DNA of 64,000 nt from an uncultured Erysipelotrichaceae bacterium (GCA_902773675.1 CACYFN010000002.1:1453-65452); one strand, 5' to 3'. Counted from the stretch's first letter, positions 7,122 to 63,324 are shown. Numbers and translations are program-made. The notes: generated by a model not told the origin, from the sequence alone.

Positions 7122-8058
7122 TTTAAGATTTTTCCTTTCAATGAATTTTTATCTATACCATTTAAATAATCACTAGCTAACATTCTTTTTTTACCTTCTA
7201 GTTGAATATCTGTTAAGACTATTTCTCCATCACTAACTTTTATACCTATACCATCTTTATAAATATTTGATATTTCTCCATTTTGTAAATTATTTATTTC
7301 TTTATCACTTATATAACTATTCCATATTTTAATTCTTTTATCATCTAACATGGCATAAGCACCTGGATGATTATTTAATCCTCTAATTTGGTTATAAATT
7401 TCTATTTTTGTTTTATTGAAATCTATTTTTTCTTCTTCTTTTGTGATGTTATAGGCATATGTTGCTTCAGTACTTTCTTGTTTTATTCTCTTGATCTTAT
7501 TATTTATAATATCTGGTAATGTTTTTAATAGTAATTCTTTTCCAACTATTTTAAGTTTATCATGAAGGGAAGACATAGTATCAGTATCTTCTATTACTAC
7601 TTCTTCTTTGCTTATTATATCTCCAGTATCCATAGACTCATCCATATACATTATGGTAATACCTGTTTTATCATAGCCATCAATAATGGCATGATGAATT
7701 GGAGCTCCTCCTCTTAGTTTTGGAAGGAGAGATGCATGGACATTAATACAACCATATTTTGGATATTCTAGTAGTATTTTAGGTATAATTTGGCCGTAAG
7801 CAGCGGTTATTATGATATTAGGATTTAAATCTAATATTTCTTGATAGTCTTCTCTTATTTTTGTTGGTTGTAATACTTTTATATTGTGTTTTAAAGCTAA
7901 TTCTTTGATTGGTGATATACTAATTTTACCACCACGTCCTACAGGTTTATCTGGCTGTGTTACTACACCTATAACATTATAATTTTTTATTAATCCGTCT
8001 AATATTGGTACACTAAATAAAGGAGTGCCCATAAATACTATTTTTATATCTTTATTCA
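7118..8058 (-). CDS. fmt: methionyl-tRNA formyltransferase portion with a possible independent internal start
   Basis: The Met of MNKDIKIVFMGTP (8056-8058) is preceded by the SD AAAGAGGT, which lies inside the last pflA codons. Confidence 0.6.
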
Positions 8059-8773: not shown

Positions 8774-10992
8774 TATAATGCCTCGTGGAATGTTCTAGAT
8801 ATTACTTCTTCTTGTTGTTTACGTGTTAGATTATTAAAGTTAACTGCATATCCGGAAATTCTAATTGTTAAATTAGGATATTTATTACGATTATTCATTG
8901 CATCTACTAACATTTGACGATCTAAAACGTTAACGTTTAGGTGATGTCCTCCTTGTTTAAAATATCCATCTAAGATGTGTACTAAATTACTTATTCTATC
9001 TTCTTCTGAACCAAGTGCATCTGGTATGATTGAGAATGTATTTGATATACCATCTAAACATAATGTATATGGTATTTTAGCAACTGATGATAATGATGCA
9101 ATGGCTCCACTTTTGTCGTTTCCTTGTGTTGGATTTGCTCCTGGGGCGAATGGTACTCCTTTTGCTCTTCCATCAGGTGTAGCTCCGGTATTATTTCCAT
9201 ACATTACATTAGAAGTTATTGTTAATAATGATATAGTTGGTTCTGCATTACGATATAGTGGATATTTTTTTAGTTCTTTTGAAAATTTGGTGATTATTTC
9301 TACTGCTAATTTATCTACCCTGTCATCATTATTTCCATATTTAGGGAAATCTTTTTCAGCATCAAATAATGAAGTTATTCCACGTTCGTCTCTTTTAACA
9401 CGTACTTGACCATATTTAATTGCGGATAATGAATCAGCAACAACACTAATTCCAGCTATACCAAAGGCCATTACTCTATTTGGAATAGTATCATGAAGAG
9501 CCATTTGACTACTTTCATAAGCATATTTATCATGCATGTAGTGAATTATATTTAACGCATCAACATATGTTTTAGTTAACTTTTTTATAACTTTTTCATA
9601 GACATGCATAAATTCATCATAATCAATGTAATCTCCTTCGATTTGCTCAATTCCATCTATTACGACATCACCACTTATTTCATCTCGACCGCCATTTAAA
9701 GCATAAAGAAGTGCTTTAGCTAGATTAATACGGGCTCCAAAGAATTGCATTTGTTTACCTTCTACCATAGCTGATACGCAACAGCTAATTGCATAATCAC
9801 TACCATATATTGGACGCATTACATCATCATTCTCATATTGAATTGTATGTGTTATGATTGACATTTCACTGCAATATTTTTTGAAGCTTTCAGGTAATTT
9901 GTTACTCCATAATATTGTCATATTTGGTTCTGCTGATGTACCTATATTATTTAATGTGTTAATAATTCTAAATGATGATTTGGTAACTAATGATCTAGAA
10001 TCATCAAGCATTCCACCAATTGATTCTGTTACCCAAGTAGGATCTCCAGCAAATAATTCATTATATTCTGGTGTTCTTAGGTGTCTAACTAGTCTTAATT
10101 TTATTACATATTGATCAATTAATTCTTGAGCTTCTTCTTCAGTAATTAGACCTTTTTCTAAGTCTCTTTCAATATATATATCTATAAATGTAGTATTTCT
10201 TCCGATACTAGTTGCTGCTCCATTATTTTGTTTGATTGCTGCTAGATATCCAAAGTATAACCACTGAATTGCTTCTTTAGCGTTTGAAGCTGGTTTTGAA
10301 ATATCATATCCATAACGAGATGCCATTTTTACTGTTTCTTTTAGGGCTTTTATTTGTTCTGCTACTTCTTCACGAAGTCTAATGGTTGACATATTAAGTG
10401 GATCTATTAATTTATCTAGATCTTCTTGTTTCTTTGCTATTAGAAAGTCAACTCCATATAGGGCAATTCTTCTATAATCACCTATTAGACGTCCACGACC
10501 ATATGCATCAGGAAGTCCTGTTATTAAATGATTAGTTCTGGCTTTTCTGATATCTTTTGTATAGGCATCAAATACTCCATCGTTATGTGTTTTACGATAT
10601 TCTGTAAATTTCATTTCTATGTCTTTATTTAATACATAACCATAGGCTTCTAAGGATTTTTTTACCATTCTCATACCGCCATATGGATTTACAATTCTTT
10701 TTAGTGGCTCATCTGTTTGAAGTCCTACTATTACTTCATTTTTTCTATCAATGTATCCTGGTTCAAAATTATCAATTCCAGCTATGATATCTGTTTCTAC
10801 ATCAAGTACTCCACTGATTGCTTCTTTTTTTATTAATGATTCACATTTTTTCCATACTTTTTGAGTTTTGCTTGATACTCCTTTTAAGAATGTACTATCT
10901 CCTCTGTATTCTTTATAATTGGCAGCAATAAATCCTGCGACATCGATATTTTTTTGCCAATTTCCATTTTTAAATCCATTCCATTCGTTCAT
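8773..10992 (-). CDS. pflB: formate C-acetyltransferase (pyruvate formate-lyase)
   Basis: 739 aa with the glycyl-radical motif RISGYAV near the C-terminus. Its stop and the pflA start overlap as TAATG. Confidence 0.9.
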
Positions 10993-15604: not shown

Positions 15605-15754
15605 CTATATGGTGCTTAAAAATCTAATGAATGTTCCTGATATTCTACCTAGAGAAAATAATGCTTTAATTATATAAGTTATAATTGGTAATAGTAATAT
15701 AGTTAATGAACTTATTACTATTATTTTGGTTATTTTATTATGAATTAGTTGCAT
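15605..15754 (-). CDS. 49-aa hydrophobic peptide, putative bacteriocin immunity protein
   Basis: MQLIHNKITKIIVISSLTILLLPIITYIIKALFSLGRISGTFIRFLSTI. Its ATG overlaps the 3' end of bacteriocin peptide 1, and the SD is weak. Confidence 0.3.
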   Translation of the reverse strand: MQLIHNKITKIIVISSLTILLLPIITYIIKALFSLGRISGTFIRFLSTI

Positions 15755-15912
15755 ATATTTCCACTAAAGATTCTTCTTACTGATGTTCCAAGGCTTCTTC
15801 CTATTTCTAGTAATACATTACCTGCTCTTACTAATGATGATATAAATGATCCTGTTAATAGGCTTGTACCACCTTTTATTTCCATTAATTCTTCTTTATT
15901 TAATTCTTCCAT
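15745..15912 (-). CDS. class II bacteriocin precursor 1 with a double-glycine leader
   Basis: MEELNKEELMEIKGG|TSLLTGSFISSLVRAGNVLLEIGRSLGTSVRRIFSGNICN. The leader fits the LSxxELxxIxGG consensus, and the SD is a perfect AAGGAGG. Confidence 0.65.
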   Translation of the reverse strand: MEELNKEELMEIKGGTSLLTGSFISSLVRAGNVLLEIGRSLGTSVRRIFSGNICN

Positions 15913-15921
15913 AGATCCTCC

Positions 15922-16062
15922 TTAATTACATTTTAATGGTCTTACTATTCCATCTATAAAACCTACCACAAATGTTACTCCTGCTATTATAAGTAAACAA
16001 GAGCCAATACTTATTCCTCCACCTTGTATTTCTTTTAGTTCTTCTTCTTTTAGTTCTTTCAT
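15922..16062 (-). CDS. class II bacteriocin precursor 2 with a double-glycine leader
   Basis: MKELKEEELKEIQGG|GISIGSCLLIIAGVTFVVGFIDGIVRPLKCN. Its ATG overlaps the stop of the upstream accessory gene as ATGA. Confidence 0.65.
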   Translation of the reverse strand: MKELKEEELKEIQGGGISIGSCLLIIAGVTFVVGFIDGIVRPLKCN

Positions 16063-16496
16063 TGAGTCATCCCTTTCTTTATCTTTTTTATTAATTCTTT
16101 TATGAGTGTGGTTTTTCCTGTTTTAAATCTAATTTTTAAGATATTATTATTTATAAGTAATTCTTTTTCTAATTTGCAATCTACTAATAATTCATAGTAC
16201 GTATCTAATTTGTTTATTTTTATTATTTTATAATCATACTTATTATCTTCTATGTATAGTTTATAATTTTTTTTAATTGGAAATAAAGATTTATCAATTA
16301 TTATTTTTAGATTATAATCTTCTTTTATTTCGACGTATCCAATGGTATTTGTATATTTATTTATTTTAAATAGTATGCTTATTAAAATAAATACAAGAGA
16401 TAAAATACATAGTATGGTAATCCAAGAGATTATTTTTGATGGTTTTTCATTTATTAGTTTCATTTTGGAATAGTTAAAGGCATTAAGATTTTCCAT
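16059..16496 (-). CDS. single-TM accessory protein of the bacteriocin exporter
   Basis: 145 aa counted from MENLNAF, which has the SD AGGAGTG. One TM segment is followed by an extracellular beta-rich region. It is coupled both to the exporter stop and to peptide 2. Confidence 0.45.
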   Translation of the reverse strand: MENLNAFNYSKMKLINEKPSKIISWITILCILSLVFILISILFKINKYTNTIGYVEIKEDYNLKIIIDKSLFPIKKNYKLYIEDNKYDYKIIKINKLDTYYELLVDCKLEKELLINNNILKIRFKTGKTTLIKELIKKIKKGMTQ

Positions 16497-18567
16497 TTTT
16501 ATATTCACTCCTAATAATGCTTCCATCATTTATTTCAATTAGATTATCAAATAGGTCAATATTATCTAGTCTATGGGTTATAAATATTATAGTTTTAGTT
16601 TTATAATATTTAATTATATTTTTTAATATTTTTCTTTCTAAATTGATATCTATTTGATTTGTACCTTCATCTATTATTAGAATATTAAATTTTCTAAGAA
16701 GGGTTCTAGCTAATATTATTCTTTGTTTTTCTCCTCCCGAGATATTATAGCCATTTTCTTCTATCATCATATTGTATCCTAAATTACTTTTATTAATAAT
16801 TTCGTCTATAAAACAATTTTTACACACTTCTAGAAAGAATAAATTATCACTATTTTCAATATTAATATTATTAAATATACTATCTGTAAAAAGGGTTTCA
16901 TTTTGACTTAAATATAAGATATTATTTAATGATTTATCTTTATAATTATTTATATCTACTCCATCTATAAATATTTTATTCATATCTACATCATAATACC
17001 TCATAAGTAGTTTAAATAGAGTTGATTTACCAGAACCACTTTTACCAATAATAACTGTTTTGGTACCACTTTTTATTTTTAAGTTTATATTTTTTAAGAC
17101 ATTATATCTATTATCAAAGGTATATGTTAAGCTTTTAAATTCAATATCTCCTTTAATATTTTTATCAAGTATTCCTTTATCTTTATTAATGCTTATTAGT
17201 TCTAAAACTCTTTTTAATGCATTTTTGGCTTCATTTATATTGTTATCTAATTCGATAATATTTTTTATCGGCTCTAAGAAAAAACTAAGTAATGCATTAA
17301 ATGTTATTAGGCTTCCTAATGATAAGGAATTATCTATTACTTTTAATGTTCCTATAAATATAATTATGACAAATCCAATATTATTTATTAATTCTTTAAT
17401 GAAATGGATTATAAAATATGTACTTTGATAATTAAATACTTCTTTTAGGAGGTGAATGTATTTTTTTTCAAAGTTATCGTTTACTTTGTTTTCGATGTGT
17501 AATCCTTTTATGGTTTCGTATGCTTGTAAGCTTTCTACCATATAGGTACTTACATTACTTTTAGCTATTTGAACTTTATTAATTATGAATTTATATTTAT
17601 TTTTAAAGATTATAATAGTTAATACATGCATGAAAATAATTATTATACTTATTATGGTTAATGTAGAACAAATTTTATACATAAATATTAGTACAAGCAA
17701 AGTGAGTGGAAAATCAATAAAAACAGCTAAAAATAGTTTACTAATGATATCTCTTATACTTGATAGGTCATTAAATCTTGATATAACTTCTCCTGTGGTA
17801 CGATTTTTGAAATAGTGATAAGGGAGTTTAATAATTTTATGATAATTATCCACTATTAAGTTTAGATCAATTTTTTGATTGATGTAAATTAGTATTTTAT
17901 TTCTAAAATAATCTGTTATTGTTTTAAGCACATATATAGAAAAGAAAAATATAAATATTAGATATGTATTATTATGAGAATGATTATTTATTTCATCAAT
18001 CATATATTGTATATAAAAGGAATTTATTATAGAAAAGATAGTAATAAATATTGATAACATTAGTAATTGTTTTAATAAGATGTGGTGGTTTTTTATTATT
18101 TCAAATATGAATGAATAAATATTTACACTATTTTCTATAGGAAGTGGTTTTATAGGAGTTAAAAATATTAATATTTTATTAAATACTAATTTGAAGTAAT
18201 CAAATGATACTTTTTTTAGTTTGTCGGCAGGATCACCAATTATTAAATATTTATTTTTATAGTTTATTTCATAAATAACTATAAAGTGCAGATAAGAATT
18301 ATCTATAGTTATATTGGCGATACAAGGGAACAATACATTCTCATTATTTATATCATCAAATTCACATTTAACTCCTCTAGCATCAAATCCTATTTGTTTG
18401 GCAGCATTTATCAGATTATAAGCATTTGTACCCTCTTTATTTGTTTTAGTTATTTGTCTTAACTGTTCGAGATTTAGAAATCCATGGTAATACTTGATAA
18501 TCATCTGTAATGATGCTGCTCCACAATCTTTTATTCCTTCTTGTTTAATGAATGGATATTTTTTCAA
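16483..18567 (-). CDS. bacteriocin-processing ABC transporter with a peptidase C39 domain, TM domain and ATPase
   Basis: The N-terminus IKQEGIKDCGAASLQMIIKYYHG carries the C39 catalytic Cys. The C-terminus has Walker A (GKSGSGKST) and the ABC signature LSGGEKQR. The start is TTG behind the SD GAGGGGG. Confidence 0.85.
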   Translation of the reverse strand: MKKYPFIKQEGIKDCGAASLQMIIKYYHGFLNLEQLRQITKTNKEGTNAYNLINAAKQIGFDARGVKCEFDDINNENVLFPCIANITIDNSYLHFIVIYEINYKNKYLIIGDPADKLKKVSFDYFKLVFNKILIFLTPIKPLPIENSVNIYSFIFEIIKNHHILLKQLLMLSIFITIFSIINSFYIQYMIDEINNHSHNNTYLIFIFFFSIYVLKTITDYFRNKILIYINQKIDLNLIVDNYHKIIKLPYHYFKNRTTGEVISRFNDLSSIRDIISKLFLAVFIDFPLTLLVLIFMYKICSTLTIISIIIIFMHVLTIIIFKNKYKFIINKVQIAKSNVSTYMVESLQAYETIKGLHIENKVNDNFEKKYIHLLKEVFNYQSTYFIIHFIKELINNIGFVIIIFIGTLKVIDNSLSLGSLITFNALLSFFLEPIKNIIELDNNINEAKNALKRVLELISINKDKGILDKNIKGDIEFKSLTYTFDNRYNVLKNINLKIKSGTKTVIIGKSGSGKSTLFKLLMRYYDVDMNKIFIDGVDINNYKDKSLNNILYLSQNETLFTDSIFNNINIENSDNLFFLEVCKNCFIDEIINKSNLGYNMMIEENGYNISGGEKQRIILARTLLRKFNILIIDEGTNQIDINLERKILKNIIKYYKTKTIIFITHRLDNIDLFDNLIEINDGSIIRSEYKNGKS

Positions 18568-18580
18568 TTATCTCACCCCC

Positions 18581-18624
18581 TCATGTATATTATTCGACAA
18601 AACTTTTCGATTTCCTTTTTTTTT
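18581..18624 (-). promoter_or_regulatory. copy 1 of a conserved promoter/leader module, located upstream of the bacteriocin exporter
   Basis: Plus-strand sequence tcatgtatattattcgacaaaacttttcgatttccttttttttt. Read on the minus strand it runs straight into the exporter SD and its TTG start. Confidence 0.45.
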
Positions 18625-18677
18625 CTTAAAAAAATTGAAAAAAAATGAAATTTCTTTATTGAATGCAAAAAAAAAGA

Positions 18678-18932
18678 CTATTTTTCAAATAATCCTTCGC
18701 ATAATTCATCCATGGTCATATCTAACATTAGAGCTATTTTATACATTGAATAGAATGATAAATTCTTTTTGCCACCTCTACTTACGATATGTCTTAGATA
18801 TTCATAGGACATTCCTATTTCTTCTGATAGATTCATTAGATTTATATTATCTTCTTTACATTTTTTTCTAATGTTAGCTCCTACTATATTTTGAACTTCG
18901 TCTACTTTTTTTATTTCTTTTAATCCATTCAT
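18678..18932 (-). CDS. XRE-family HTH transcriptional regulator
   Basis: HTH segment LSEEIGMSYEYLRHIVSRGG. The start is set at MNGLKE (18930-18932), which has the SD GGTGG. Confidence 0.6.
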   Translation of the reverse strand: MNGLKEIKKVDEVQNIVGANIRKKCKEDNINLMNLSEEIGMSYEYLRHIVSRGGKKNLSFYSMYKIALMLDMTMDELCEGLFEK

Positions 18933-19039
18933 ATTTCCACCAAGTATATTATATAATAAACAAATTTTGGTGTCTGCAAACAATTATTTTGCATTTTTTT
19001 ATGAATATATAAATAAGTATTTAATATAATATAATAGAT

Positions 19040-19671: not shown

Positions 19672-19875
19672 ATGAAAGGGATATTAACAAAAAGAGAAAA
19701 AGAAGTTTTTAATTTATTGATTGTTAATAAAACTACTAAGGAAATTGCTGATGAGTTAAATATTAGTGAGAAAACTGTTAGAAATCATATTTCTAATGTG
19801 ATGCAGAAACTTGGGGTTAAAGGACGTGCTAGTGCGGTTGTAGAGCTTTTAAAATTAAAGGAAATTTCTCTTTAA
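19672..19875 (+). CDS. gerE: LuxR-type sporulation transcription factor GerE
   Basis: LTKREKEVFNLLIVNKTTKEIADELNISEKTVRNHISNVMQKLGVKGRASAVVELL is close to identical to GerE. Confidence 0.8.
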   Translation: MKGILTKREKEVFNLLIVNKTTKEIADELNISEKTVRNHISNVMQKLGVKGRASAVVELLKLKEISL

Positions 19876-20911: not shown

Positions 20912-20988
20912 GTCTCAGTAGCTCAGCTGGATAGAGCATCGCCCTTCTAAGGCGAGTGTCAGGGGTTCGAATCCCTTCTGGGACACCA
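20912..20988 (+). tRNA. tRNA-Arg, anticodon TCT
   Basis: Cloverleaf with acceptor stem GTCTCAG/CTGGGAC, anticodon loop CTTCTAA and encoded CCA. Confidence 0.85.
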
Positions 20989-50315: not shown

Positions 50316-50800
50316 GAATTAACCTCCTTATTACAACTAATAACATTATATCACAGATTAACACTTTTTAGCATATTTTTTATTGTTATTAATAATAATT
50401 ACAATTATAAATTCATAATGGTTTTAGTGTATAATTCTATTACTTTTTTTATTGAATCAGTTAGAATATTTTCTTTTTTACATTATGTATCATATATATT
50501 AGATAATTACTTTGATATCTTCTAAAATATAAACTATATCATCACTTTTTATTAACACATCTAATGTTCTAATTCTTAAAAATACTCTATCAGCTACTAA
50601 TTCTCTATTTCTAACATTTAAATTATTAATATTATAATTTAAATTTAGAGACTTGAATGTTCTATTTATTAACCATTTAAGTAATTTGTCATCTTTAAAG
50701 AAGATACTTTAAAATACTATATTATTAGCTAATGTTTTAATCTTATTATCTTTCATTTATTTCACCCTCATTCTAAGAAAGTAGCTTGTCCTACACTACC

Positions 50801-50848
50801 CTCTATATATATTATTCGACAAAACTTTTTAATTTCCTTTTTTTTTCG
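50801..50848 (-). promoter_or_regulatory. copy 2 (orphan) of the conserved promoter/leader module
   Basis: ctctatatatattattcgacaaaactttttaatttcctttttttttcg. On the minus strand it is followed by the SD GAGGGTG and a 15-codon mini-ORF at 50709-50756. Confidence 0.4.
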
Positions 50849-52342: not shown

Positions 52343-54241
52343 TTATTTCTTCTTCATTTTCTTAAATATTATTGCAGATAATATTACTTGAGCAAATATA
52401 AATAAATTTATTAATATTAATCCTATTAAAATATATTTAATTAATCCATCATCTAATCCATCTTCTCCATAGTCATTATAATAATTATTGATATTTCCAT
52501 TATTATCTATACTATTATTTTCTTTTTCTTCTTCAATTTCGTCTTTTGTTGTTTCTGGATTATTTGATTGCTCATTTGTAAGAGTCTTTTGTTTTTCATT
52601 GGATTCTTTTATTATATTATTGGTTGATTCTTCATCTAATTTTTCTACATTATCTAATTTTAATGTAATTACTGGTCTTATGCCAGCTGTAAATGATAAT
52701 TCTCCTACTCCATTATATCCTGATAGGAAAAAATTATTTCCATTATTTTGACCTGGTGCGATATAAAGAGATACCCAGTTCTTTTCTATTTCAGCATTAT
52801 CGAGATTATAGAACATTATTCCTACATTGAAATATCCATTACCATTATATGGTGATGATGTATCTTCTACAGATTTTTTATTAAATTGCCTTTTGGAATT
52901 AATCCAATATTTAGCATTTACTTTATCATTTATTTTATTTAGATTAGCTAAATCAGAATATACAACTGCTCTAGCATTTATTACTTTATCTCCATTTTTA
53001 TAATTATCTACTTCTTTTTGAAGAATATCTTCATAATTTTCATAATCATCTTTTCCTCTAAGGTAAAGATTTTTTACTATTCCACCACTAATTATATCTA
53101 CTGTATTATTTGCTTTATCTATTGATAATACACGCCAATTTTTATATTCTTGTGCACTATAATTTACATAGTCTCCTACACTTAAATCAGTATTTGCTTC
53201 TTTTTTGTTAGTTTCTTGTGGTGTTAGTTTAAGGGTAACTACTGGCCTAAATCCTTTTGTTACTGGTTGGTATTGACTATATGTTTCAGAATAGCAACAC
53301 TCTAAATAGTTTCTTTCTACTACATACTTTTCAATTTCATAGTATCTTGATTTATATCCTTCTCCAGAACTATCTCCAAACCATCCTCTTAATATTTTAT
53401 ATGGGTTACTTTTGGATGCATAATAATTTTTTATTTTAGTAATATAATTTATTCTATCATTTCCATATCTTTGAAGAACATGTCCAGTTTCCCAAACATT
53501 ACTGTCTGACTGACGATAATCATTAAAAATTGCATCAATATATCCATATGGATCATTTAACATTTGCTCATTACCTAATACATCTATTGCAATTGGGTCT
53601 TTAGGCATTAACCATAAAGAATCTCCCCATACTTCTATTATAAACCATTCACTAATACCACCAATATCTTTGGTATATATATCTCCTTGTTCATAACCAG
53701 ATGTGTTATCTAAATGATATTGTATATATGGTAAAAAATATAGATCATTTGAAAAATCAGATGGATCTACATATTCAATTTTTCCTGCTGAATATGCAAT
53801 ACTCTTATCATATTTGTCTGCTGTCCAAAATTCTTTACCAAATGCAAAATTCTCCAAATCAGAACGATTTACGCTTCTTGCTTTAATAGCATATTTCCCA
53901 TCAACATATTTATCTGCTTCAGTTTGAAATATATCTAATGCATTATCAAAATCATCTTTATCTGATATAGTTATTTCGGATACATTATCTTTACTTACAA
54001 CGTCTATTGTTCCATTTACTTTATCTATATAGATAACTTTCCAATCTGAATATCCATTTATTTCATATTTTATTGAATCACCAATTTTAATTTTTTTTAT
54101 ATTTGTATTTAAATCATTTATGTTGTAGACACTACCCATTAATCTATTAGGATTTACTGATATTCCAACTAATACAATTATTAATATAACCATAAAAATA
54201 CTTGTAATTAGTACTTTTATTGCATTACTTTTTTTATTCAT
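52343..54241 (-). CDS. large two-anchor surface protein with two tandem ~200-aa repeats
   Basis: Each repeat runs from ...GDSIKYEINGYSDWKVIYIDKVNGTIDVVSK... to ...GFRPVVTLKL. It is a paralog of the 54263 and 45159 proteins. Confidence 0.5.
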   Translation of the reverse strand: MNKKSNAIKVLITSIFMVILIIVLVGISVNPNRLMGSVYNINDLNTNIKKIKIGDSIKYEINGYSDWKVIYIDKVNGTIDVVSKDNVSEITISDKDDFDNALDIFQTEADKYVDGKYAIKARSVNRSDLENFAFGKEFWTADKYDKSIAYSAGKIEYVDPSDFSNDLYFLPYIQYHLDNTSGYEQGDIYTKDIGGISEWFIIEVWGDSLWLMPKDPIAIDVLGNEQMLNDPYGYIDAIFNDYRQSDSNVWETGHVLQRYGNDRINYITKIKNYYASKSNPYKILRGWFGDSSGEGYKSRYYEIEKYVVERNYLECCYSETYSQYQPVTKGFRPVVTLKLTPQETNKKEANTDLSVGDYVNYSAQEYKNWRVLSIDKANNTVDIISGGIVKNLYLRGKDDYENYEDILQKEVDNYKNGDKVINARAVVYSDLANLNKINDKVNAKYWINSKRQFNKKSVEDTSSPYNGNGYFNVGIMFYNLDNAEIEKNWVSLYIAPGQNNGNNFFLSGYNGVGELSFTAGIRPVITLKLDNVEKLDEESTNNIIKESNEKQKTLTNEQSNNPETTKDEIEEEKENNSIDNNGNINNYYNDYGEDGLDDGLIKYILIGLILINLFIFAQVILSAIIFKKMKKK

Positions 54242-54262
54242 TCTTAAACCTCCTTCTAATAA

Positions 54263-56263
54263 TTACTTTTTCTTTTTATTTTTTATATTTTTAATAATAA
54301 GTACAGAAAATATTGTTTGAATTAGTAACGCTATATTTAATATTACTATAGTAATTATTATATATTTTACTATTTTATTATTATTATTTTTCTTTTTATG
54401 GTTATTATAATAATTATTTACTTCATTATTATCTTTAGTATCTATTTTATTATCTTCTGTATTTTTATCATCTTTAGTTATATCATTTTTTGTATTATTT
54501 TTTTCATTATTCTTTTTAGTATCATCTGTTATATATTTAGTACTATTATTCTTTTGTTCTTTTGTAATATTATTATTATTTTTATTTGATGATTCAATAG
54601 CATTTTGTGTTTCTTCTTCATTTAATTTTTTAACATTATCTAGTTTTAATGATATTACTGGTCTAATTCCAGCTGTAAATGATAAATCTCCAAATCCATT
54701 GTAACCTGTTAACATAGAACTTGATCCACTTGTTAGGCTTGTTGAAACATATAATGAAACCCATTTTCTTTCTACTGAATTTGTGTCATAGTCAAAATAT
54801 AAAATTGCGGCATCATAGAATCCATTAGTAGCATAAGGAGATGATGTTTCATCTACTGCTTTTTTGTTATATTGTTTTTTTTCTAATGACCAATATTTTA
54901 CATTTACATCATCATTAATTTTATTTAATTTTTTAATATCACTATATTCAGTTATTCTGGCACTTATAGCATTATCACCATTTTTATATTCATCTACTTC
55001 TTTTTGTAAAATATCTTCATAGTTTTCAAAATCATCTAATCCATAAAGGCTTATATTTTTAACTATTCCACCACTAATTATATCGACTGTTTCATTTTCT
55101 TCATCTATTGATAATACTTTCCAGTTATAATATTCTTTAGCACTATAGTTTACATTATCTCCAACTTGTAAATCTGTTCCAATACTTTTACCATCTGCAA
55201 TTTTTGAACTATATTTTAGAGTAACAATTGGTCTAAAGCCTTTGGTAATTGGTTTTTCTGTTATATATGATTCATTTTCACAACATTCATCACTATTTTG
55301 GTCAAGGTGAATTGTTGCAACAGATCCTGTTATTTCGTCATAAGTATAATTTTGATGTAATTCAAAGTATCCTGTAAAAGTTTTTAGATCATTTCCTTCT
55401 TGAATAAAGTAATTATTTATATTTTGATTGTCTCTTATAACCCAGAATCCATATTTATCTTGAAGGTTACCTACTTCTACTACTTTATTATTGGAATTTT
55501 GTAATCTTTCTAGATATTCTGCAATATATTTTGTTGGATTATTTCTAAATTGTTCATTTTTTTCAAATGACAATTTAATTGGTTCTTTTGATATTAGTGC
55601 TAATTTATCATATGAAGGAGCATTGATAACAAACCAATCTGTAACTCCATCAATATCTATTGTATAGTCTGATCCATAAGCATACGAATAGGCATTTTCT
55701 ATATCATTTATGATGACATATGGGATGTAATAGTATTCATGGGGTTTATTTTCAAATTCTGTATATTTAACTGCTCCGGTTGTAAATGCTACTGCTCCAT
55801 CATAAATATCAGCATTCCAGAATTCTTCATCAAATGCAAAGTTATCTAAATCAGCTCTTGATACACTACGTGCTTTTATTGCATATTTTTCATCTACATA
55901 TTTATTGGCTGTTTCTTGAAATTTATTTAGGGCATTGTCATAATCATCTTTAGTTAGTAAGGTTATATCTTCAACATTGGTTTTACTAACAACATCAATT
56001 GTATTACTATTTCTATCAATGTATACTACTTGCCAATCAGAATATCCATTTATTTCATAATTAATAGTATCTCCTACTTTTAATATATTATTATTACTTT
56101 CTAATTCTGTTGCTTTATAAGTACTACCTAAAAGTTTATCTGGTTTAAGCTTTGTTCCTAGCAATATAACAAATACAAAGATTAAACTTAATCCTATTAT
56201 TAAAACATATTTTTTAGGTGTTTTTATATTATTAGATTTTTTAACATTTTTTTTATTATTCAT
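54263..56263 (-). CDS. large two-anchor surface protein, paralog of the 52343 protein
   Basis: Same repeat architecture: ...GDTINYEINGYSDWQVVYIDRNSNTIDVVSK... ending in GFRPIVTLKY and AGIRPVISLKLD. Confidence 0.5.
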   Translation of the reverse strand: MNNKKNVKKSNNIKTPKKYVLIIGLSLIFVFVILLGTKLKPDKLLGSTYKATELESNNNILKVGDTINYEINGYSDWQVVYIDRNSNTIDVVSKTNVEDITLLTKDDYDNALNKFQETANKYVDEKYAIKARSVSRADLDNFAFDEEFWNADIYDGAVAFTTGAVKYTEFENKPHEYYYIPYVIINDIENAYSYAYGSDYTIDIDGVTDWFVINAPSYDKLALISKEPIKLSFEKNEQFRNNPTKYIAEYLERLQNSNNKVVEVGNLQDKYGFWVIRDNQNINNYFIQEGNDLKTFTGYFELHQNYTYDEITGSVATIHLDQNSDECCENESYITEKPITKGFRPIVTLKYSSKIADGKSIGTDLQVGDNVNYSAKEYYNWKVLSIDEENETVDIISGGIVKNISLYGLDDFENYEDILQKEVDEYKNGDNAISARITEYSDIKKLNKINDDVNVKYWSLEKKQYNKKAVDETSSPYATNGFYDAAILYFDYDTNSVERKWVSLYVSTSLTSGSSSMLTGYNGFGDLSFTAGIRPVISLKLDNVKKLNEEETQNAIESSNKNNNNITKEQKNNSTKYITDDTKKNNEKNNTKNDITKDDKNTEDNKIDTKDNNEVNNYYNNHKKKNNNNKIVKYIIITIVILNIALLIQTIFSVLIIKNIKNKKKK

Positions 56264-56416
56264 TTCATCCCACTCCTATTTTAATAATTTTATATTTTAT
56301 TATAACATTATAATGAGTATTTATCAATGATTAATATTCTTTTGTTTTTATTTTTCGTTTATTTAAATAGATTTTTTATTCACTTATTAATAATATAATT
56401 CCCCAAAAAAAGAAGA

Positions 56417-57649
56417 TTATTTATCTTCTAGTTTTTTTTTCATGATGATTGCTATTGCTACTAAAACAACAACGCATCCACCAAGAATAGCAAATATTTT
56501 TACAATATCATCTAGTGTTTTTGGTGCTTCTGCTTCTTTTTTTTCTTCTTTTACTTCTTCTAATGTTTCTTCTTTTGCTTCTTCAATAGTTTTTTCTTTT
56601 AAACTTGCTCTTGCTGCTTTTAACTTTGTAACCATTTCATCTACATTTTCTTGAGTAGCATTAGTATTATTTTTTAATTCATTAGCTTCATCTAATAAAT
56701 CTTCAACATTTTTAAATGATTCATCAGTATATTTATCTTTTTCTAATGCATTAATTTCTTCTAATTGTTTTAATAATTCAGTTTTATCTGCTTGATTTTT
56801 TAAATTATTTTTTGCTGTATTAATACTATCTATTCCGTTTTTTATATCATCTATTGTGATTGTTGTACCTTCCAAAACTGTTTTTTGTGCTTCTATTACT
56901 TCTTTCAAACTATCTATTGAATCTTTTGTATAATTATTCGCATAATCCTCATATTTTCCTTCTTCTTCAGTAATTAAATTTGATAATAATGCAGTATTTA
57001 CTTCTAACGCATCAACAATGTCATCAGCTTCTCCAAATGTATAATCTACTTGAATATAGAATTTACCTGGAGTTGTTGTATCTTCATTAAGAGTAATTTC
57101 TGATGAAATAGCTGTTTCAATATTTTCAATTAATTCATCTAAATTGCTAAAAGAAGTTGATGTGTAATATTCTTTATTATTTTGATACTCTTTTAAAGTA
57201 CTTAGACGTGTTTGTAATTCAGTCTTGTCATAAAGATACCAATTTCCTATTCTCTTTGATCCACTATATCCTGTTATTTTGTATGCATAGTTTTTTTCAA
57301 TATATCCTAAATTAATTGTTTTATTAGAGTCTCCTCCATTTTCATTATGAAAAATTATCATATTATAATGATATTCATCAAAACTATCTGGGGCTGTAAA
57401 CATGTATATATTGTCTTCGCCAGGAACCTTAACTAATTCATCATTACTATCCCAGGCTTTATATGTTGCTCCATTTTTTTCCCAAATATGAATATAGATA
57501 TGATTCCAGTCTAATCCAGTTGCATCAAAATAGATAACATCTCCTTTTTTTATTGCTGAATGTTCTTTATCTGGCGTATATGTAGCTTTTACATTTGATA
57601 TACAAAGCATTGTAAGTATTATTGCTATAAACGCAAATATTTTTTTCAT
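56417..57649 (-). CDS. surface protein with an N-terminal beta-domain, a coiled-coil region and a C-terminal sorting-like anchor
   Basis: Signal peptide. The C-terminus reads EAPKTLDD, a hydrophobic helix, then KKKLEDK. Confidence 0.5.
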   Translation of the reverse strand: MKKIFAFIAIILTMLCISNVKATYTPDKEHSAIKKGDVIYFDATGLDWNHIYIHIWEKNGATYKAWDSNDELVKVPGEDNIYMFTAPDSFDEYHYNMIIFHNENGGDSNKTINLGYIEKNYAYKITGYSGSKRIGNWYLYDKTELQTRLSTLKEYQNNKEYYTSTSFSNLDELIENIETAISSEITLNEDTTTPGKFYIQVDYTFGEADDIVDALEVNTALLSNLITEEEGKYEDYANNYTKDSIDSLKEVIEAQKTVLEGTTITIDDIKNGIDSINTAKNNLKNQADKTELLKQLEEINALEKDKYTDESFKNVEDLLDEANELKNNTNATQENVDEMVTKLKAARASLKEKTIEEAKEETLEEVKEEKKEAEAPKTLDDIVKIFAILGGCVVVLVAIAIIMKKKLEDK

Positions 57650-57762
57650 TTTCTTCCTCCTATTATTATATGTAAATTATATAATAAATATTTTCTTTTG
57701 TCAATATTAGCATGAAATAAATTTCTTTTTTATATACTAAAAAATAGTACTAATTGCACTAT

Positions 57763-58287
57763 TTAATATTCTTCATCATTTATTATCTTTGCTTCTATAA
57801 TTATTTGTATATCATCTTTAATTTTATGGCATGTTATAAGTGTAATAGTATTATTATGATTTTCTATTTTAAAGGAATTCTTTTTTAATTCTTTTATGTT
57901 ATATATTTGATATGTATACTTGACATTATCTTTATATAAATAAATAATATCTTCATTCTTTAATTCATCTAATCTGTTAAAATAACATATACTGCAGTTA
58001 CCGGAATGACTTGCTAAAATTATATCATTATTTAGAAATCTTTGATAATCTATGATAGTAATATCTTCATCTACATTAGAATCTTTTTTTAACCCTCTTT
58101 TTAAATTTATTTTAGGTATTTCTAATATTGCTACAAAATCATTATTATCTTTATGTTCTAAATAGTTAGCTATAGAATTAATTTCTTGTTTTTGAATTTT
58201 ATAATTTTGATAATAATTATTACACTTTAAAGTTATGCCAATTATGATAAATAAACTACTTATTAAAATTATACTTTTTAGTTTCAT
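57763..58287 (-). CDS. small sortase-family transpeptidase
   Basis: ILASHSG (His) and TLITC (TLxTC Cys). No canonical Arg is obvious after the Cys. Confidence 0.55.
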   Translation of the reverse strand: MKLKSIILISSLFIIIGITLKCNNYYQNYKIQKQEINSIANYLEHKDNNDFVAILEIPKINLKRGLKKDSNVDEDITIIDYQRFLNNDIILASHSGNCSICYFNRLDELKNEDIIYLYKDNVKYTYQIYNIKELKKNSFKIENHNNTITLITCHKIKDDIQIIIEAKIINDEEY

Positions 58288-60031
58288 ATATACCTATAAA
58301 ACCTATTATAATAAAAATATTAGATAGTATTTTATTATAATTAATTTCATTTTTTAATGTATTTGGTATTTCATATTGTTCATTTATTACTTCAATATTA
58401 TTAAAATCATTATCTATATTTATATCAATATTATCTGTATTTAATAAATATCCATTAACTCCTTCTACTTCTTCTAAATAATATTCTCCATAATAAAGAT
58501 CAGATATATAGCCATAACCATTATTAATTGTTATTTCATCTATTAATTCATCAGCTTTATAATAGATATCTCCTGTAAGTGATACTATATCTTTTTTAGC
58601 AAATAATTTAAATTTTGCTCCATTTAATAGTAAATTATCACTACCTATTTTTTTGATTTCTAAATTACCTTTTTTTATTATTTCTTTATCTTTTAACTCA
58701 ATTATAGTTTCTTCTTTAATGTTTGAGGCATCTATTTCTATTGGACTACTTATTTCAAAGTTATCTTTTCCACTTATTTGTTTTAGAATATATTTACCAA
58801 ATGGTAAAAGTAATTCTATGGTACCTGATTCATCTGTTATATATGTATCTATTAAATTATTATATTCATCATAAAGTTCAAATGAGGCATCACTTTCTAA
58901 ATAGTAATTATCAGTTATTTCATTACCATATTTTTTTATGATTTTATATTTATTTTTGATTATATCTTCATATACTATTAGTTTTTGATGATTATTAGTT
59001 GAGGTTAGATTTACTTCATATTTGGTATCATCTAACATATATCCTTTACTGGGTTGTATTTCTTTTATGTAATAATTTCTTAATGGTAAATCAGAAATTA
59101 CTCCATATCCATTATTATCAAGTGATATTTCTTGAATTAATTTATTATCTTCATCATATAATCCATATACCGCTCCTTCTAGGGTAGCTGGCGCTTGACT
59201 AGTAATATTTTCTCTATCTTGTTTATTAATTTCTATTGTTCCATCTTTAAATGTTATAGTTATTGACTTTGTTACATCATCATACTTACCTGGATAAAAC
59301 ATGTTTTGTCTTACATTGTTATTATATAATATATAATCTCTAGTTTCAGAAGATTTTTTTATAAAACGAATTGTATATGTACCTGGATTATCACTGGATA
59401 TTGTTAATGTATTACCAACTTTATTTATGTTAATATTACCATTATAATCAATATCATATAAGTCAAGTACATTGTTATTATCTACTAATGTATATTGTTC
59501 TTTAATACTATAATTGTTTTCTATGTTAAAATTTGGAGTAATGTAATGATTATTTACAAGACTATTTAATTCATTTAATTCTTCTTTATATTGAATAATT
59601 TTATTTCCATATAATGTATCGGTATAATAGATATCATCTAGTCCTAAAGTTTCCCAAATAAGATATTGAGTTATTCCATACCATTTTATATCGGTATGAT
59701 TATTATAACCATATCCATAATGAGCAAGTAAATTCATTCTATTTATTTGTTCTTTTGATAAACCGAATAATTCATTATATCCAATATATCCTTCATAATT
59801 TCCATTTATTTCATTAGTAAATGGATCTATGCAATATACATAATTATTATCACTTCTTAGTAGCATCCATGTTGATGTATTTCTTAAATTACCATTTTTT
59901 ATTTTTGTTACATAGGCATTTGGTACCATACTACCAAAGTGAAATGATTCTATTAAATCATAAGCTGATACTTTAGATATACTTATAATAAGTATAAAAA
60001 TAATAAATAAAATTTTTTTCATTTTTTTCAT
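58256..60031 (-). CDS. thioester-domain (TQXA) adhesin with CnaB/SpaA-type isopeptide domains
   Basis: YVYCIDPF followed by GITQYLIWE, with Cys...TQxxIW spacing typical of a thioester domain. It has three CnaB-like repeats, and its C-terminus reads IPNTL, a hydrophobic helix, then KKYNFNK. Confidence 0.6.
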   Translation of the reverse strand: MKKMKKILFIIFILIISISKVSAYDLIESFHFGSMVPNAYVTKIKNGNLRNTSTWMLLRSDNNYVYCIDPFTNEINGNYEGYIGYNELFGLSKEQINRMNLLAHYGYGYNNHTDIKWYGITQYLIWETLGLDDIYYTDTLYGNKIIQYKEELNELNSLVNNHYITPNFNIENNYSIKEQYTLVDNNNVLDLYDIDYNGNININKVGNTLTISSDNPGTYTIRFIKKSSETRDYILYNNNVRQNMFYPGKYDDVTKSITITFKDGTIEINKQDRENITSQAPATLEGAVYGLYDEDNKLIQEISLDNNGYGVISDLPLRNYYIKEIQPSKGYMLDDTKYEVNLTSTNNHQKLIVYEDIIKNKYKIIKKYGNEITDNYYLESDASFELYDEYNNLIDTYITDESGTIELLLPFGKYILKQISGKDNFEISSPIEIDASNIKEETIIELKDKEIIKKGNLEIKKIGSDNLLLNGAKFKLFAKKDIVSLTGDIYYKADELIDEITINNGYGYISDLYYGEYYLEEVEGVNGYLLNTDNIDINIDNDFNNIEVINEQYEIPNTLKNEINYNKILSNIFIIIGFIGIYETKKYNFNK

Positions 60032-60045
60032 TTTTTTCCTCCTTA

Positions 60046-61074
60046 TTAACTTGGTATTTGGATAAAAGATAAATAATCATTTTTCATCCATATGTTGTAT
60101 TCTGTATTAATCCAATTATTATAGTCATACCAAATTCCGTCATAAAAATACCTAGATAGTTGATGGGTATTTTTATTTATTTTATATGTTAAATCTTGTT
60201 GATTTGGTATTCTAATATCATTGGTAATAATTTTATTACTGATAAGTTTAAACATATTATATTTTTGAGTATCTATTATATATTCATAACCATAACCACT
60301 TATTTTTTTATTTATATAAATTGGGTTATTCCAATTTAGGTCAGTAGAATCGGAATTATTAATTCTTTTCCATAGGTAAATAGATGGATTTTGATCTATA
60401 AATATATAGATTCTTTTTTTATTAAATTGAGAAAATACTAGAGGTGCGAATACTTTTCCTAAATTATTAGTTGAGAATGATAAATCAATGGTTTGTTTTT
60501 TAGCACTAATCTCTGAATTATTGGTATCGGTAAAGATAATATTTTTATATTTATTTATATTTTCTGGTTCTATATTATAAGCATATATTTTTTTTTGATA
60601 ATCTATTAGGGTTGCAGGTTTACCCGGCCATGGTGCATTATATATTTTTTCTTGATCATTATATAAATAAACATTTACATTAGTTGAATTCCAATCAGGA
60701 GGTATTTGAAAATAGATATAATTATTTTTCCATTTAGCAAATAGTTCTATAGTATCATTATCAACAGAAGTTAGATTTATGATAGATTCTCCATCTTGAT
60801 AATTTTTTCCTGTTCCATTTTGTTCGGTATTCCATCCATCAAAAGTATATCCTTCTTTTGTAAAAGTATTTAAATTTAGATTATAACTTGTATCATATAT
60901 TAAATTCATATCTGGCATTGATCCGATACCAGAGTTTGAATTAAATTTTACTATATAATTTGGTTTACGATTATTAATAGTTATTGTACTTTTAAAAGAA
61001 GTATGATATTTACTATAAGATACTGGAATTATCATTGATAATACTATTAATAAAATAATTAATACTTTTTTCAT
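60046..61074 (-). CDS. secreted Listeria-Bacteroides repeat protein
   Basis: The signal peptide ends VSYSKYHTSF. GYTFDGWNTEQNGTGKNYQDGESI is a List_Bact repeat. Confidence 0.5.
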   Translation of the reverse strand: MKKVLIILLIVLSMIIPVSYSKYHTSFKSTITINNRKPNYIVKFNSNSGIGSMPDMNLIYDTSYNLNLNTFTKEGYTFDGWNTEQNGTGKNYQDGESIINLTSVDNDTIELFAKWKNNYIYFQIPPDWNSTNVNVYLYNDQEKIYNAPWPGKPATLIDYQKKIYAYNIEPENINKYKNIIFTDTNNSEISAKKQTIDLSFSTNNLGKVFAPLVFSQFNKKRIYIFIDQNPSIYLWKRINNSDSTDLNWNNPIYINKKISGYGYEYIIDTQKYNMFKLISNKIITNDIRIPNQQDLTYKINKNTHQLSRYFYDGIWYDYNNWINTEYNIWMKNDYLSFIQIPS

Positions 61075-61085
61075 GAGTCACCTCT

Positions 61086-61547
61086 TTATAAGTTTACTTG
61101 ATTAAATATTACTTCTATTTGAATAGGATGGTTTAAAAGATTTGGGGTTGCTAATGTGGATTTAAAATGGAGAGTATCTTGAATATTTAGTATTTCTTTT
61201 GATGAATTTATGGTTCTGACATCAATAATTATTTGATTATTATTGGAACTTATATATGAATTATTATTGAGTGATACTTCTATTTCATCTGGAACATTAG
61301 TGAGTTTTATTATATAATTGGAAGCTACTTCAGATTTATAGGAAATATTAATTATATAATCCTCGATATTACTACCTGATACTAAATCTAGTGTTTCATT
61401 TGGTAGACTTGCTTCTATATTCCATTTAGCTATAGCAATACTTTTATTAATTAATAAATTATTATTGTATTTTGAGTATGTGTTTACTATTATATTAAAT
61501 GAAAATATAACAAAATAAATTAATAAGAAATGGATATATTTTTTCAT
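61086..61547 (-). CDS. secreted protein with a TasA-like N-terminal motif
   Basis: ...NTYSKYNNNLLINKSIAIAKWNIE..., paralogous to the N-terminus of the protein at 62199. Confidence 0.5.
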   Translation of the reverse strand: MKKYIHFLLIYFVIFSFNIIVNTYSKYNNNLLINKSIAIAKWNIEASLPNETLDLVSGSNIEDYIINISYKSEVASNYIIKLTNVPDEIEVSLNNNSYISSNNNQIIIDVRTINSSKEILNIQDTLHFKSTLATPNLLNHPIQIEVIFNQVNL

Positions 61548-62122
61548 AGATTATCATTCTCTTCTATACTAAAAGATAGTTTTACTATATATTTATTAAT
61601 ATTACTTTTTCCAATATAATTATCTAATTTATCATTATCAAACCATTTCCAATCTAGAGAATAATTATCTATGTTTCCTTTTGATAAATTTAGATAGGTA
61701 GTTTTTAATTCTTCGGATGTTACCCATAATTTATCATTTCCAAGTATATATTCATCATTTCTTTTTAATCGATATTTTATATTAACACTGTAATTGGATA
61801 GTTTAGTTAATTCTATTAAATATTTAATAGTTATGTTATTGTTATTTTTTACTTTAAAATAATATGTATTAGATACTCCTGGGGCAATAGTTTTTGTGTT
61901 ATTAAATAAATTTATTTCTGTTTGATATTGATAATCTCCATTATAATCTTCAATAATGATATTACCATTATCTAATTTACAATTATCTTTTTTACTATTA
62001 AATTTAATATTATAAATATCTGCATTTTTCTTTAATATTTTTGTTTTAGTACATTTTACAAAAAGAAGAAGAATTATTATTAATACTAATATTATATTTA
62101 TTATTTTCCACTTATTATTCAT
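61544..62122 (-). CDS. hypothetical membrane-anchored protein
   Basis: N-terminal TM segment with an N/K-rich beta-rich ectodomain. It is coupled to the downstream gene. Confidence 0.45.
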   Translation of the reverse strand: MNNKWKIINIILVLIIILLLFVKCTKTKILKKNADIYNIKFNSKKDNCKLDNGNIIIEDYNGDYQYQTEINLFNNTKTIAPGVSNTYYFKVKNNNNITIKYLIELTKLSNYSVNIKYRLKRNDEYILGNDKLWVTSEELKTTYLNLSKGNIDNYSLDWKWFDNDKLDNYIGKSNINKYIVKLSFSIEENDNL

Positions 62123-62198
62123 TTAATACCTCCTATTTAGTTTCCATAGACAAAATAATTATTACTTTGCCTATGGAAGTTAAATAACTTCCAATTTA

Positions 62199-62825
62199 TT
62201 AGTTTATGTGAATAGTTATTGGATTAGTTCCTGGTCTTACTTGTGTTCCTGTAATAGTTACTGGTATTTCTAGTATTTCTCCTAAAACACCATATTCATT
62301 ATCAAGTGCATCTCCGCTATATATTCCATTTGTTATGGATCCTGTTTCAAATATCCACTTCCAATATATGGTTACTGTTAATCCTTCTTCGTCATTAGCA
62401 GATAATTGTCCATTTATTTTAGTGATTCCTGGTATTATTTCTGTTTGATAGTTTGAATCTTTATAAAATTTAATATTTGTAGGAAAATGTTCAACACTAT
62501 CTAATGAAATGCTGAAATTAGCACCAACATCACTAGTATTTACTAAGTCTATGGAAAATGATCCTTCTGTACCTGGGGCAATTATTTTATAATCTTTTCC
62601 ATCAACTGTTCTTGAACTTATAAGTGTTGATTCATCATAATTATCTTTTAGGTTAATATTAATTGTTTCAGAATTATTATCAGTTTCAAAATTCCATCTA
62701 GCTATAGCTACGGAACTTCTTTTGGAAATAGAGGCTGTGTATTTAGCATATGTACCTGCAATAAAAACACCAGATATACCAATTACTAATAGTAATAATA
62801 ATACTTTAATTTTTTTCTTTTTCAT
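62199..62825 (-). CDS. secreted protein with a TasA-like N-terminal motif, first gene of the island operon
   Basis: ...AGTYAKYTASISKRSSVAIARWNFE... with the SD AAAGGAAGTG. The promoter module lies 60 nt upstream. Confidence 0.5.
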   Translation of the reverse strand: MKKKKIKVLLLLLVIGISGVFIAGTYAKYTASISKRSSVAIARWNFETDNNSETININLKDNYDESTLISSRTVDGKDYKIIAPGTEGSFSIDLVNTSDVGANFSISLDSVEHFPTNIKFYKDSNYQTEIIPGITKINGQLSANDEEGLTVTIYWKWIFETGSITNGIYSGDALDNEYGVLGEILEIPVTITGTQVRPGTNPITIHIN

Positions 62826-62891
62826 ATTTCACTTCCTTTCTTTTTTTCTATAGCTTGTCCATTATTTATTTACAACATATTTATCACCTCC

Positions 62892-62937
62892 TCATGTATA
62901 TTATTCGACAAAACTTTCTAATTTCCTTTTTTTTTTG
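62892..62937 (-). promoter_or_regulatory. copy 3 of the conserved promoter/leader module, located upstream of the surface island operon
   Basis: ctcatgtatattattcgacaaaactttctaatttcctttttttttt. On the minus strand it is followed by the SD GAGGAGGTGA and the mini-ORF ATG TTG TAA. Confidence 0.45.
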
Positions 62938-62958
62938 GAAAAAAAATGAAGAAAAGTG

Positions 62959-63324
62959 TTAATTTTCTTCATTTTCTTTATTATTTATCCATAATCCGTG
63001 TTTATTACAGTAAGAATATATTTTGGAATTTGGTTTATATTCAAATTCAACTTGTGGTTCTTCTCCTGGTTTTAATCTTTTTATAACTATATCATTTGGC
63101 GTTTCTTGAGCTATCCATTCGATGTAATGATCTTCATCCATTACATGGTTTACTGTAACTATTATTTTATTATTTACTACTTCAATATTTGGTACATGTT
63201 TTTCAAATGATGCATCAATACTATTAGATATTAATTCTTTCATTTCTTCATTACAGCAAATAGTACTATTACTTCCTTTTAATACATAAATAACCTTACC
63301 ACATTTCATACATTTTCTAAACAT
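62959..63324 (-). CDS. dfx: desulfoferrodoxin (superoxide reductase)
   Basis: N-terminal CMKCGKV...CC desulforedoxin site and a C-terminal HVMDEDHYIEWI...YCNKHGLW neelaredoxin site. A terminator gaagaaaa/ttttcttc follows. Confidence 0.75.
   Translation of the reverse strand: MFRKCMKCGKVIYVLKGSNSTICCNEEMKELISNSIDASFEKHVPNIEVVNNKIIVTVNHVMDEDHYIEWIAQETPNDIVIKRLKPGEEPQVEFEYKPNSKIYSYCNKHGLWINNKENEEN

Follow-up and report, generated by a model that had tools for sequence, protein, structure and literature searches.

Sigma-H (Spo0H/SigH) is the transition-state sigma factor, which endospore-forming Firmicutes activate on leaving exponential growth and entering stationary phase. The sigA operon of B. 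subtilis has a sigma-H promoter, and spoVS counts among the classic targets of sigma-H in B. subtilis, B. thuringiensis and C. difficile. The streptococcal ComX/sigma-X system uses a cin-box, TACGAATA, which is likewise centred on CGAAT(A) and lies in promoters without the AGGA -35. For sigma-H itself, the B. subtilis consensus quoted in PMC8510167 is RNAGGAWWW at the -35 and RNNGAATWW at the -10. In C. difficile, spo0A and a sigA gene are established SigH targets, and a T-run before the -10 is frequent in SigH promoters (PMC7438776); a passage of PMC12090719 describes the Ps promoter of B. subtilis spo0A as sigma-H dependent. The sigma-H boxes of Listeria read AAAGGAWTT or GAAGGAAAT, followed by N11 and GGCGAAT or GTCGAAT (PMC4754846).

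The three copies of a probable promoter described here lie in one window (the whole stretch of DNA analysed, 64 kb in length) and resemble the B. subtilis sigma-H promoters spo0A Ps and those of the sigA operon, spoIIA, spoVG and spoVS in their -35, their -10, the 11-nt spacing and the A-rich sequence 5' of AGGA. They differ from them in the genes downstream (an exporter, a sortase/pilin operon and an Rpn-like gene), which are not classic targets, in an extremely short leader, and in that sigma-H dependence is here predicted. With the C. difficile SigH promoters of spo0A, lplA and ssuA, whose -10 reads TGTCGAA(T/G), they share a near-top score, a T-rich spacer and an embedded 0A-box core; one spacer sequence is common to the three copies, however, whereas the C. 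difficile spacers vary. The CGAAT(A) -10, the AAAGGAWTT -35 and the N11 of the competence sigma-H promoters of Listeria monocytogenes (comGA, comEA and coiA) also have their counterparts here, but, unlike in the Listeria and streptococcal systems, no competence genes follow the copies, and sporulation genes are present.

A probable promoter module repeated three times

On the minus strand, AAAAAAAAAGGAAAT-nnn-AAAGTTTTGTCGAATAATATA occurs at 18586-18624 (copy 1), 50808-50846 (copy 2) and 62897-62935 (copy 3). The 39-nt pattern TATATTATTCGACAAAACTTTNNNATTTCCTTTTTTTTT has three exact matches, with 0 mismatches, in the 64-kb window and is absent from 100 dinucleotide-preserving shuffles of it (chance expectation 0). 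A repeat search of the window extended the module family to 75 nt at 76-87% identity, and no further copies were found in the window even when 3 mismatches were allowed in the 21-nt core. The three-copy repeat is real and non-random; an earlier note on this DNA had reported the module at these three loci and had its coordinates right. Read along the minus strand, the module consists of a T-run, an A-run, GGAAAT, nnn, AAAGTTTTGTCGAATAATATA and a Shine-Dalgarno (SD) sequence. All three copies are intergenic and point at a downstream gene on the minus strand, and the module is kept at orthologous positions. The earlier note had also described the conserved unit as a promoter together with its 5' untranslated region; the promoter and the A/T tracts make up most of the conserved stretch, as described, but the transcribed portion barely exceeds the SD.

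The -35 AAAGGAAAT and the -10 GTCGAATAA are found in all three copies and fit RNAGGAWWW and RNNGAATWW, respectively, with a spacer of 11 nt in every copy (the norm of the class is 11-12). The strict pattern RNAGGAWWW-N11-RNNGAATWW has five matches in the window against 0.88 expected, three of which are the copies and two of which are intragenic. A two-block weight matrix was derived from 38 C. difficile SigH promoters for which Table 3 of PMC7438776 gives mapped starts and expression ratios in the sigH mutant. Among all window positions on both strands, this matrix ranks the copies 1-3, at 20.2 bits each, compared with a training median of 16.5, a training maximum of 21.5 and 19.3 for the best of 30 shuffles. 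The distance from AGGA to GAAT is 21 in the copies; among the 38 training promoters, 35 have a distance of 21-22. A relaxed search with the -35 and -10 only, allowing two mismatches, returned nine matches in the window against 9.9 expected, which is the level of chance; the specific signal thus does not extend beyond the three copies. No sigma-70-type promoter (TTGACA-N16-18-TATAAT or an extended -10) was called on the minus strand at any of them.

Judged by its sequence, each copy very probably functions as a near-perfect promoter for the sigma-H form of RNA polymerase. The three sites would then join the known class of sigma-H promoters as additional members, from an uncultured Bacilli spore-former of low GC, and would unite an operon for bacteriocin export, one for surface fibres/pili and a decayed nuclease-like gene within a single known regulon. 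A promoter and a common regulon for three minus-strand transcription units had been proposed in the earlier note, and the proposal stands in the form of its second option, an alternative sigma factor. The factor would not be a dedicated or novel one: AAAGGAAAT and GTCGAATAA fit the published sigma-H consensus exactly. The string AATATACAT, which the earlier note had pointed out as a sporulation-sigma-like element, is not the recognition element; its place is downstream of the -10, and neither copy 2 (ATATATATAG) nor the orthologous exporter locus L008 (ATATAAGTG; L numbers denote loci from other genomes and metagenomes) retains it.

Spore-former genes are present in the window (spoVS, gpr, a SpoIIIAH-like and a GerM-like gene). 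A gene for SigH or any other sigma factor was not found within the 64 kb, and the source organism presumably carries sigH, which we assume from general knowledge of endospore-formers. Upstream of spoVS (38956-39216, plus strand), which served as an internal positive control, there was no recognisable sigma-H promoter.

In the mechanism that we propose, sigma-H would recognise the -35 through its region 4 and the -10, 11 nt further downstream, through its region 2, and the A-run beside the -35 would, with the T-run beyond, probably form an UP element. We infer the start sites from the distances in the mapped C. difficile SigH promoters, where transcription starts mostly 8-11 nt past the T of GAAT, with a mode of 9-10 (n=38). 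Transcription of the copies would accordingly begin 8-10 nt past GAAT, 0-2 nt before a very strong SD.

Transcription units downstream of the copies

All coordinates in this section are on the minus strand unless stated otherwise. In copy 1, the -35 lies at 18610..18618, as placed by consensus fit and matrix, and the -10 lies 11 nt past it, at 18590..18598. A perfect Spo0A-box core, TGTCGAA (core from PMC3485338), occupies 18593-18599. Immediately 5' of the -35, an A-tract followed by T-tracts (18619..18651) is UP-element-like and may function as such; the same layout of T-run and A-run is repeated in L008, L031, L005, L012 and L039. The predicted start, 8-10 nt past the T of GAAT, falls at 18582..18584, which would place the SD GAGGGGGTGA (18573..18582) at the extreme 5' end of the mRNA, at the beginning of a predicted leader of only ~15-17 nt. 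This SD would serve as the ribosome-binding site of a C39-peptidase ABC exporter (16483..18567; Pfam Peptidase_C39, ABC_membrane and ABC_tran), the first gene of copy 1, which starts with the TTG codon at 18567-18565. A strong SD followed by an initiation codon had been claimed for each copy; the description suits copy 1, with GAGGGGGTGA and TTG at 18567, but not copies 2 and 3.

The rest of the exporter operon (15605..16529) encodes a 156-aa membrane protein (16059-16529), two double-glycine leader peptides of 46 aa (15922-16062, leader ending in ...EIQGG) and 55 aa (15745-15912, leader ending in ...EIKGG), and a 49-aa hydrophobic immunity-like ORF (15605-15754). From this gene content, the operon is probably one for a class II, two-peptide bacteriocin with its immunity protein, and the two leader peptides downstream agree with the earlier identification of the copy 1 gene as a bacteriocin-type exporter. 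An XRE-type HTH gene (18678-18983) and a 67-aa GerE/LuxR-type HTH ORF (19672-19875, plus strand) adjoin copy 1.

Copy 2 has its -35 at 50832..50840, its -10 at 50812..50820 (0A-box core at 50815-50821) and its predicted start at 50804-50806, and its SD is degenerate (AGAGGGTAGTG). The 15-codon 'mini-ORF' that the earlier note had seen after copy 2 is the beginning of an 85-codon frame (50499..50756) broken by a single in-frame stop, TAA at codon 16. This frame is a pseudogene remnant of the Rpn family (PDDEXK_2), which copy 2 would drive: it matches the N-terminus of an Rpn-like protein encoded upstream of ftsK in L039 (BLASTP E=5e-9), and an Rpn-like gene is found at the same place upstream of ftsK in the relatives L037 and L039. 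The remnant itself had no hmmscan match in Pfam or NCBIfam; the Rpn-like protein of L039 and a fragment in L037 match TIGR01784, below its cut-off. That this region might be a degenerate paralogue of the first gene of the surface operon, which encodes 208 aa, was also considered and rejected, as tblastn with 81 family members came back empty and the region proved Rpn-like instead.

The ftsK gene has an extended -10 of its own, TGATATAAT, at 50345..50353, outside the module. A similar TGnTATAAT is found at the same position in L037-L039, with a related sequence in a fourth relative. Copy 2 was accordingly discarded as the ftsK promoter, since the ftsK genes of the relatives have their own extended -10 and only variable sigma-H-like sites upstream (17.7 bits in L038, GTAT variants in L039 and L040). 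Read-through from copy 2 into ftsK is possible, because no terminator was detected, but is not required. In L039, whose FtsK is 78% identical, a variant of the module with the -10 GTTGTATAT replacing GTCGAATAA occurs twice, at 8930-8995 and 9895-9950, one before the Rpn-like gene and the other before ftsK.

Copy 3 has its -35 at 62921..62929, its -10 at 62901..62909 (0A-box core at 62904-62910) and its predicted start at 62893-62895. Its A-tract adjoins the T-run of the terminator of the upstream desulfoferrodoxin gene (62938..62972, hairpin ATGAAGAAAA/TTTTCTTCAT with a T8 run), a hairpin of fewer than three G-C pairs that a simple terminator scan had missed for that reason. The 5'-terminal SD GAGGAGGTGA (62884-62893) had been taken to stand directly before the gene, but it is followed by a two-codon ORF, ATG TTG TAA (62870-62878), and both are conserved in L031. 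The real first gene begins at 62825, 45 nt beyond the two-codon ORF. Copy 3 does precede the first gene of the surface operon, as the earlier note had it, via a leader of ~70 nt. The operon that it would drive is predicted to extend over 52343..62825 and encodes secreted proteins of 208 and 192 aa and a protein of 153 aa, the equivalents of which at homologous loci resemble S26-type signal peptidases. It further encodes Flg_new/CBM26 proteins, a SpaA/thioester pilin, a sortase and large surface proteins.

The leaders of copies 2 and 3 contain a further element, GGACAAGCT (50783-50791 and 62852..62860, respectively), which is invariant in these and in the leaders of L031 (3644-3652), L032 (3830-3838) and L033 (5945-5953). 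It has stayed unchanged although the surrounding leaders diverged with indels, and 0.12 occurrences would be expected per window; across the five leaders, RNA pairing is not conserved and no ORF is consistently present at the element. In L033 and copy 2, start-stop pairs (ATG TAG and GTG TAG) just before GGACAAGCT replace the two-codon ORF. A 5'-proximal ribosome-binding stabiliser of mRNA is described as STAB-SD in a passage of PMC3997798 that cites Agaisse & Lereclus 1996, and a passage of PMC5737220 provides the hbs mRNA as a precedent. Purely by analogy with these, we infer that the 5'-terminal SD of copies 2 and 3 may plausibly act as a ribosome-loading 5' stabiliser before a longer leader. 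As in STAB-SD and hbs, the SD stands a few nt from the predicted 5' end without a real gene of its own (copies 2 and 3 and L031-L033); unlike in them, a two-codon ORF lies behind the SD in copy 3.

The sigma-H reading amounts to a concrete and testable regulatory assignment for an uncultured, very low-GC gut Bacilli spore-former. If the timing of expression is that of the class, two-peptide bacteriocin export and a surface operon of sortase/pilin plus TasA/SipW-like type would switch on upon entry into stationary phase and sporulation. These operons would thereby parallel B. subtilis, in which antimicrobials and matrix protein are made at the transition state. A link between bacteriocin export and surface structure is plausible, via a large general regulon and not via a dedicated circuit. 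The explanation is clear and conventional, and involves no new regulatory principle.

Occurrence in other genomes

A scan with the pattern GGAAAT-N6-GTTTTGTCGAATAAT of one genome per species (185,579 species) retrieved 16 loci. Seven of these belong to Lachnospiraceae and lie directly upstream of a dnaG-type gene; DnaG was confirmed by Pfam in L006 and L010, and the gene for the primary sigma factor (sigA) follows dnaG in L014. Another three, from Clostridia, are upstream of a dGTPase-like gene (dgt), with dnaG and then the primary sigma factor gene following in L009. Single loci were found upstream of spo0A in Clostridiaceae, of an orthologue of the C39-ABC exporter in an uncultured member of the Bacilli (L008), of a gene with a weak, below-cut-off match to the Rpn family (L005), and of an oxaloacetate-decarboxylase gamma gene. 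The remaining two, from a Verrucomicrobiales MAG and from Paenibacillus, look like chance matches or resist interpretation.

The cross-genome scans fixed 21 bases of the module, so that the generality of the spacer cannot be read from them; the unconstrained N6 positions are strongly A-rich across the loci. Together with the T-runs of the C. difficile promoters, this suggests that the shared spacer is part of an optimal sigma-H promoter and not a peculiarity of this genome. The grammar of sigma-H promoters, spacer composition included, would then be sufficiently conserved between Bacilli and Clostridia for regulons to be predicted in metagenome-assembled genomes.

Conservation was also followed at the orthologous positions. 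The exporter of L008 is 52% identical in protein, and its promoter is identical over ~44 nt, whereas the DNA further upstream is unalignable. A closer exporter orthologue, L026, which came from a metagenome scan with the 21-nt core, has AGGATTT at the -35, still within AGGAWWW. For the surface operon, L031 (first gene 79% identical) has retained the whole module, the two-codon ORF and GGACAAGCT, and L033 (57% identical) has retained GCAGGAAAT-N11-GTGGAATAT, which is the sigma-H consensus. In L032 (71% identical), the GG of the -35 is changed to AA and the -10 is kept. In the more remote homologues (L034-L036, at most 48% identity), no sigma-H match above 12 bits was present on the coding strand anywhere upstream of the surface operon.

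At L032 (3740-3950), a frameshift in a poly-A homopolymer affects the first gene, and an IS66 transposase is nearby. The loss of the -35 and the frameshift at this locus reflect either decay of the locus or an error of sequencing or assembly. A viral contig from IMG/VR with a GC content of 25%, L041, contains the module once (1231-1257), with GGGAAAT at the -35, placed between a terminator and an ORF of ~21 aa that is itself followed by a terminator. In the metagenome loci L017 (~380-460) and L018 (~2050-2135), a sigma-H-type promoter has its -10 block GTTTTGTCGAATAAT repeated in inverted orientation ~21 nt downstream, so that the predicted start is flanked by two Spo0A-box cores in inverted arrangement, before the gene of an 83-aa membrane protein.

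Alternative readings and further features of the window

The heptamer TGTCGAA within TTTTGTCGAATAAT raises the question of whether the core is primarily a Spo0A site, in a Spo0A~P-controlled promoter that is read by sigma-A or another factor and not by sigma-H. It is perfect in all three copies, and the heptamer occurs seven times in the window, where 1.56 would be expected. Perfect 0A boxes upstream of C. difficile spo0A, lplA and ssuA bind the DNA-binding domain of Spo0A in gel shifts (PMC3485338), the SigH promoters of the same three genes have TGTCGAA in their -10 (PMC7438776), and the inverted copy of the -10 block in L017 and L018 is perfect as well. Such a reading, however, leaves the invariant AGGAAAT at the correct 11-nt spacing unexplained, and there is no sigma-A promoter at the copies for Spo0A to act on; moreover, a 0A box that overlaps the -10 would repress and not drive transcription. 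Whereas the usual Spo0A box lies upstream of the promoter, the box here is inside the -10. Once the copies are set aside, four heptamers remain, all of them intragenic, which is no clear excess over 1.56. The core is perfect not only in the three copies but also in L008, L026 and L031; the orthologous promoter of L033, in contrast, reads TGTGGAA, in which the Spo0A-critical C4 is changed. Since L033 breaks the box and yet keeps the sigma-H consensus, sigma-H appears to be the primary constraint. We therefore regard a primary Spo0A site as improbable, while the binding of Spo0A as an extra layer on the sigma-H promoter is, from the sequence, possible.

Two further explanations of the repeat were considered. 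The copies could be recent duplicates of one promoter-leader cassette, or remnants of a dispersed repeat, and so reflect shared descent and not shared regulation. Copies 2 and 3 can indeed be aligned all the way from the A/T tracts to the ribosome-binding site, GGACAAGCT included, with a single 22-nt indel, copy 2 now stands before a pseudogene, the variant module of L039 (-10 GTTGTATAT) occurs twice within 1 kb, and Rpn-like genes, which are typically multicopy, are preceded by the module in L039 and possibly also in L005, where the family match is weak and below the cut-off. However, the promoter has been kept before orthologues of 52-79% protein identity while the flanking intergenic DNA diverged, the module stands before unrelated genes (spo0A and dnaG) in other classes, and an inverted-repeat search found no terminal inverted repeats or target duplications at the module beyond the A/T tracts. 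Descent as the whole explanation is thus highly improbable. A duplication of ~130 nt probably connects copies 2 and 3, and all three copies may have arisen in this way, in which case their similarity to one another cannot count as separate evidence of selection; duplication may account for how the copies arose, but not for why they were kept. The other explanation takes the module for a transcribed cis-regulatory leader (a riboswitch, attenuator or sRNA target) or for the operator of a quorum or peptide regulator such as XRE or GerE, and the earlier note had leaned towards quorum or peptide control. Conservation does reach into the SD, an XRE-type gene and a GerE-type ORF do adjoin copy 1, and the exporter operon encodes secreted peptides; but these neighbours are found at copy 1 only, the conserved block lies mostly upstream of the predicted start, and the motif stands before housekeeping sigma-H targets in other taxa. 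Nor did RNA analysis favour a leader: Rfam returned nothing relevant, either at gathering thresholds over the whole window or at E<=1 around each copy, where there was noise only; folding energies were no better than those of shuffles (z = 0.93, -0.79 and -1.32); and alifold gave no consensus pairs for five aligned leaders. Peptide control and a role for XRE or GerE are unsupported, and the reading as a whole is largely refuted, with hardly any probability left to it.

The sigma-H reading itself admits of an extension, in which the module is a compact and portable 'transition-phase pulse' cassette that combines a consensus sigma-H promoter, a high-affinity Spo0A box in the -10 and a stabilising 5' SD/mini-ORF. 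Sigma-H would switch the promoter on and rising Spo0A~P would switch it off, the invariant leader element GGACAAGCT would contribute extra control, and the cassette would have been copied before unrelated genes for bacteriocin export, surface fibres/pili and Rpn-like nucleases. We offer this extension tentatively and consider it doubtful.

Other features of the window are recorded for completeness. A T-box leader (1559-1742, minus strand) lies upstream of pheS (482-1543), and this leader and one tRNA gene (20912-20985, plus strand) are the sole matches at Rfam gathering level in the window. A 551-aa ORF (7118-8773, minus strand), directly downstream of a pyruvate formate-lyase-like gene (8773-10992), is an unusual fusion of a radical-SAM/4Fe-4S activase-like N-terminal half with a formyltransferase C-terminal half (Formyl_trans_N/C).
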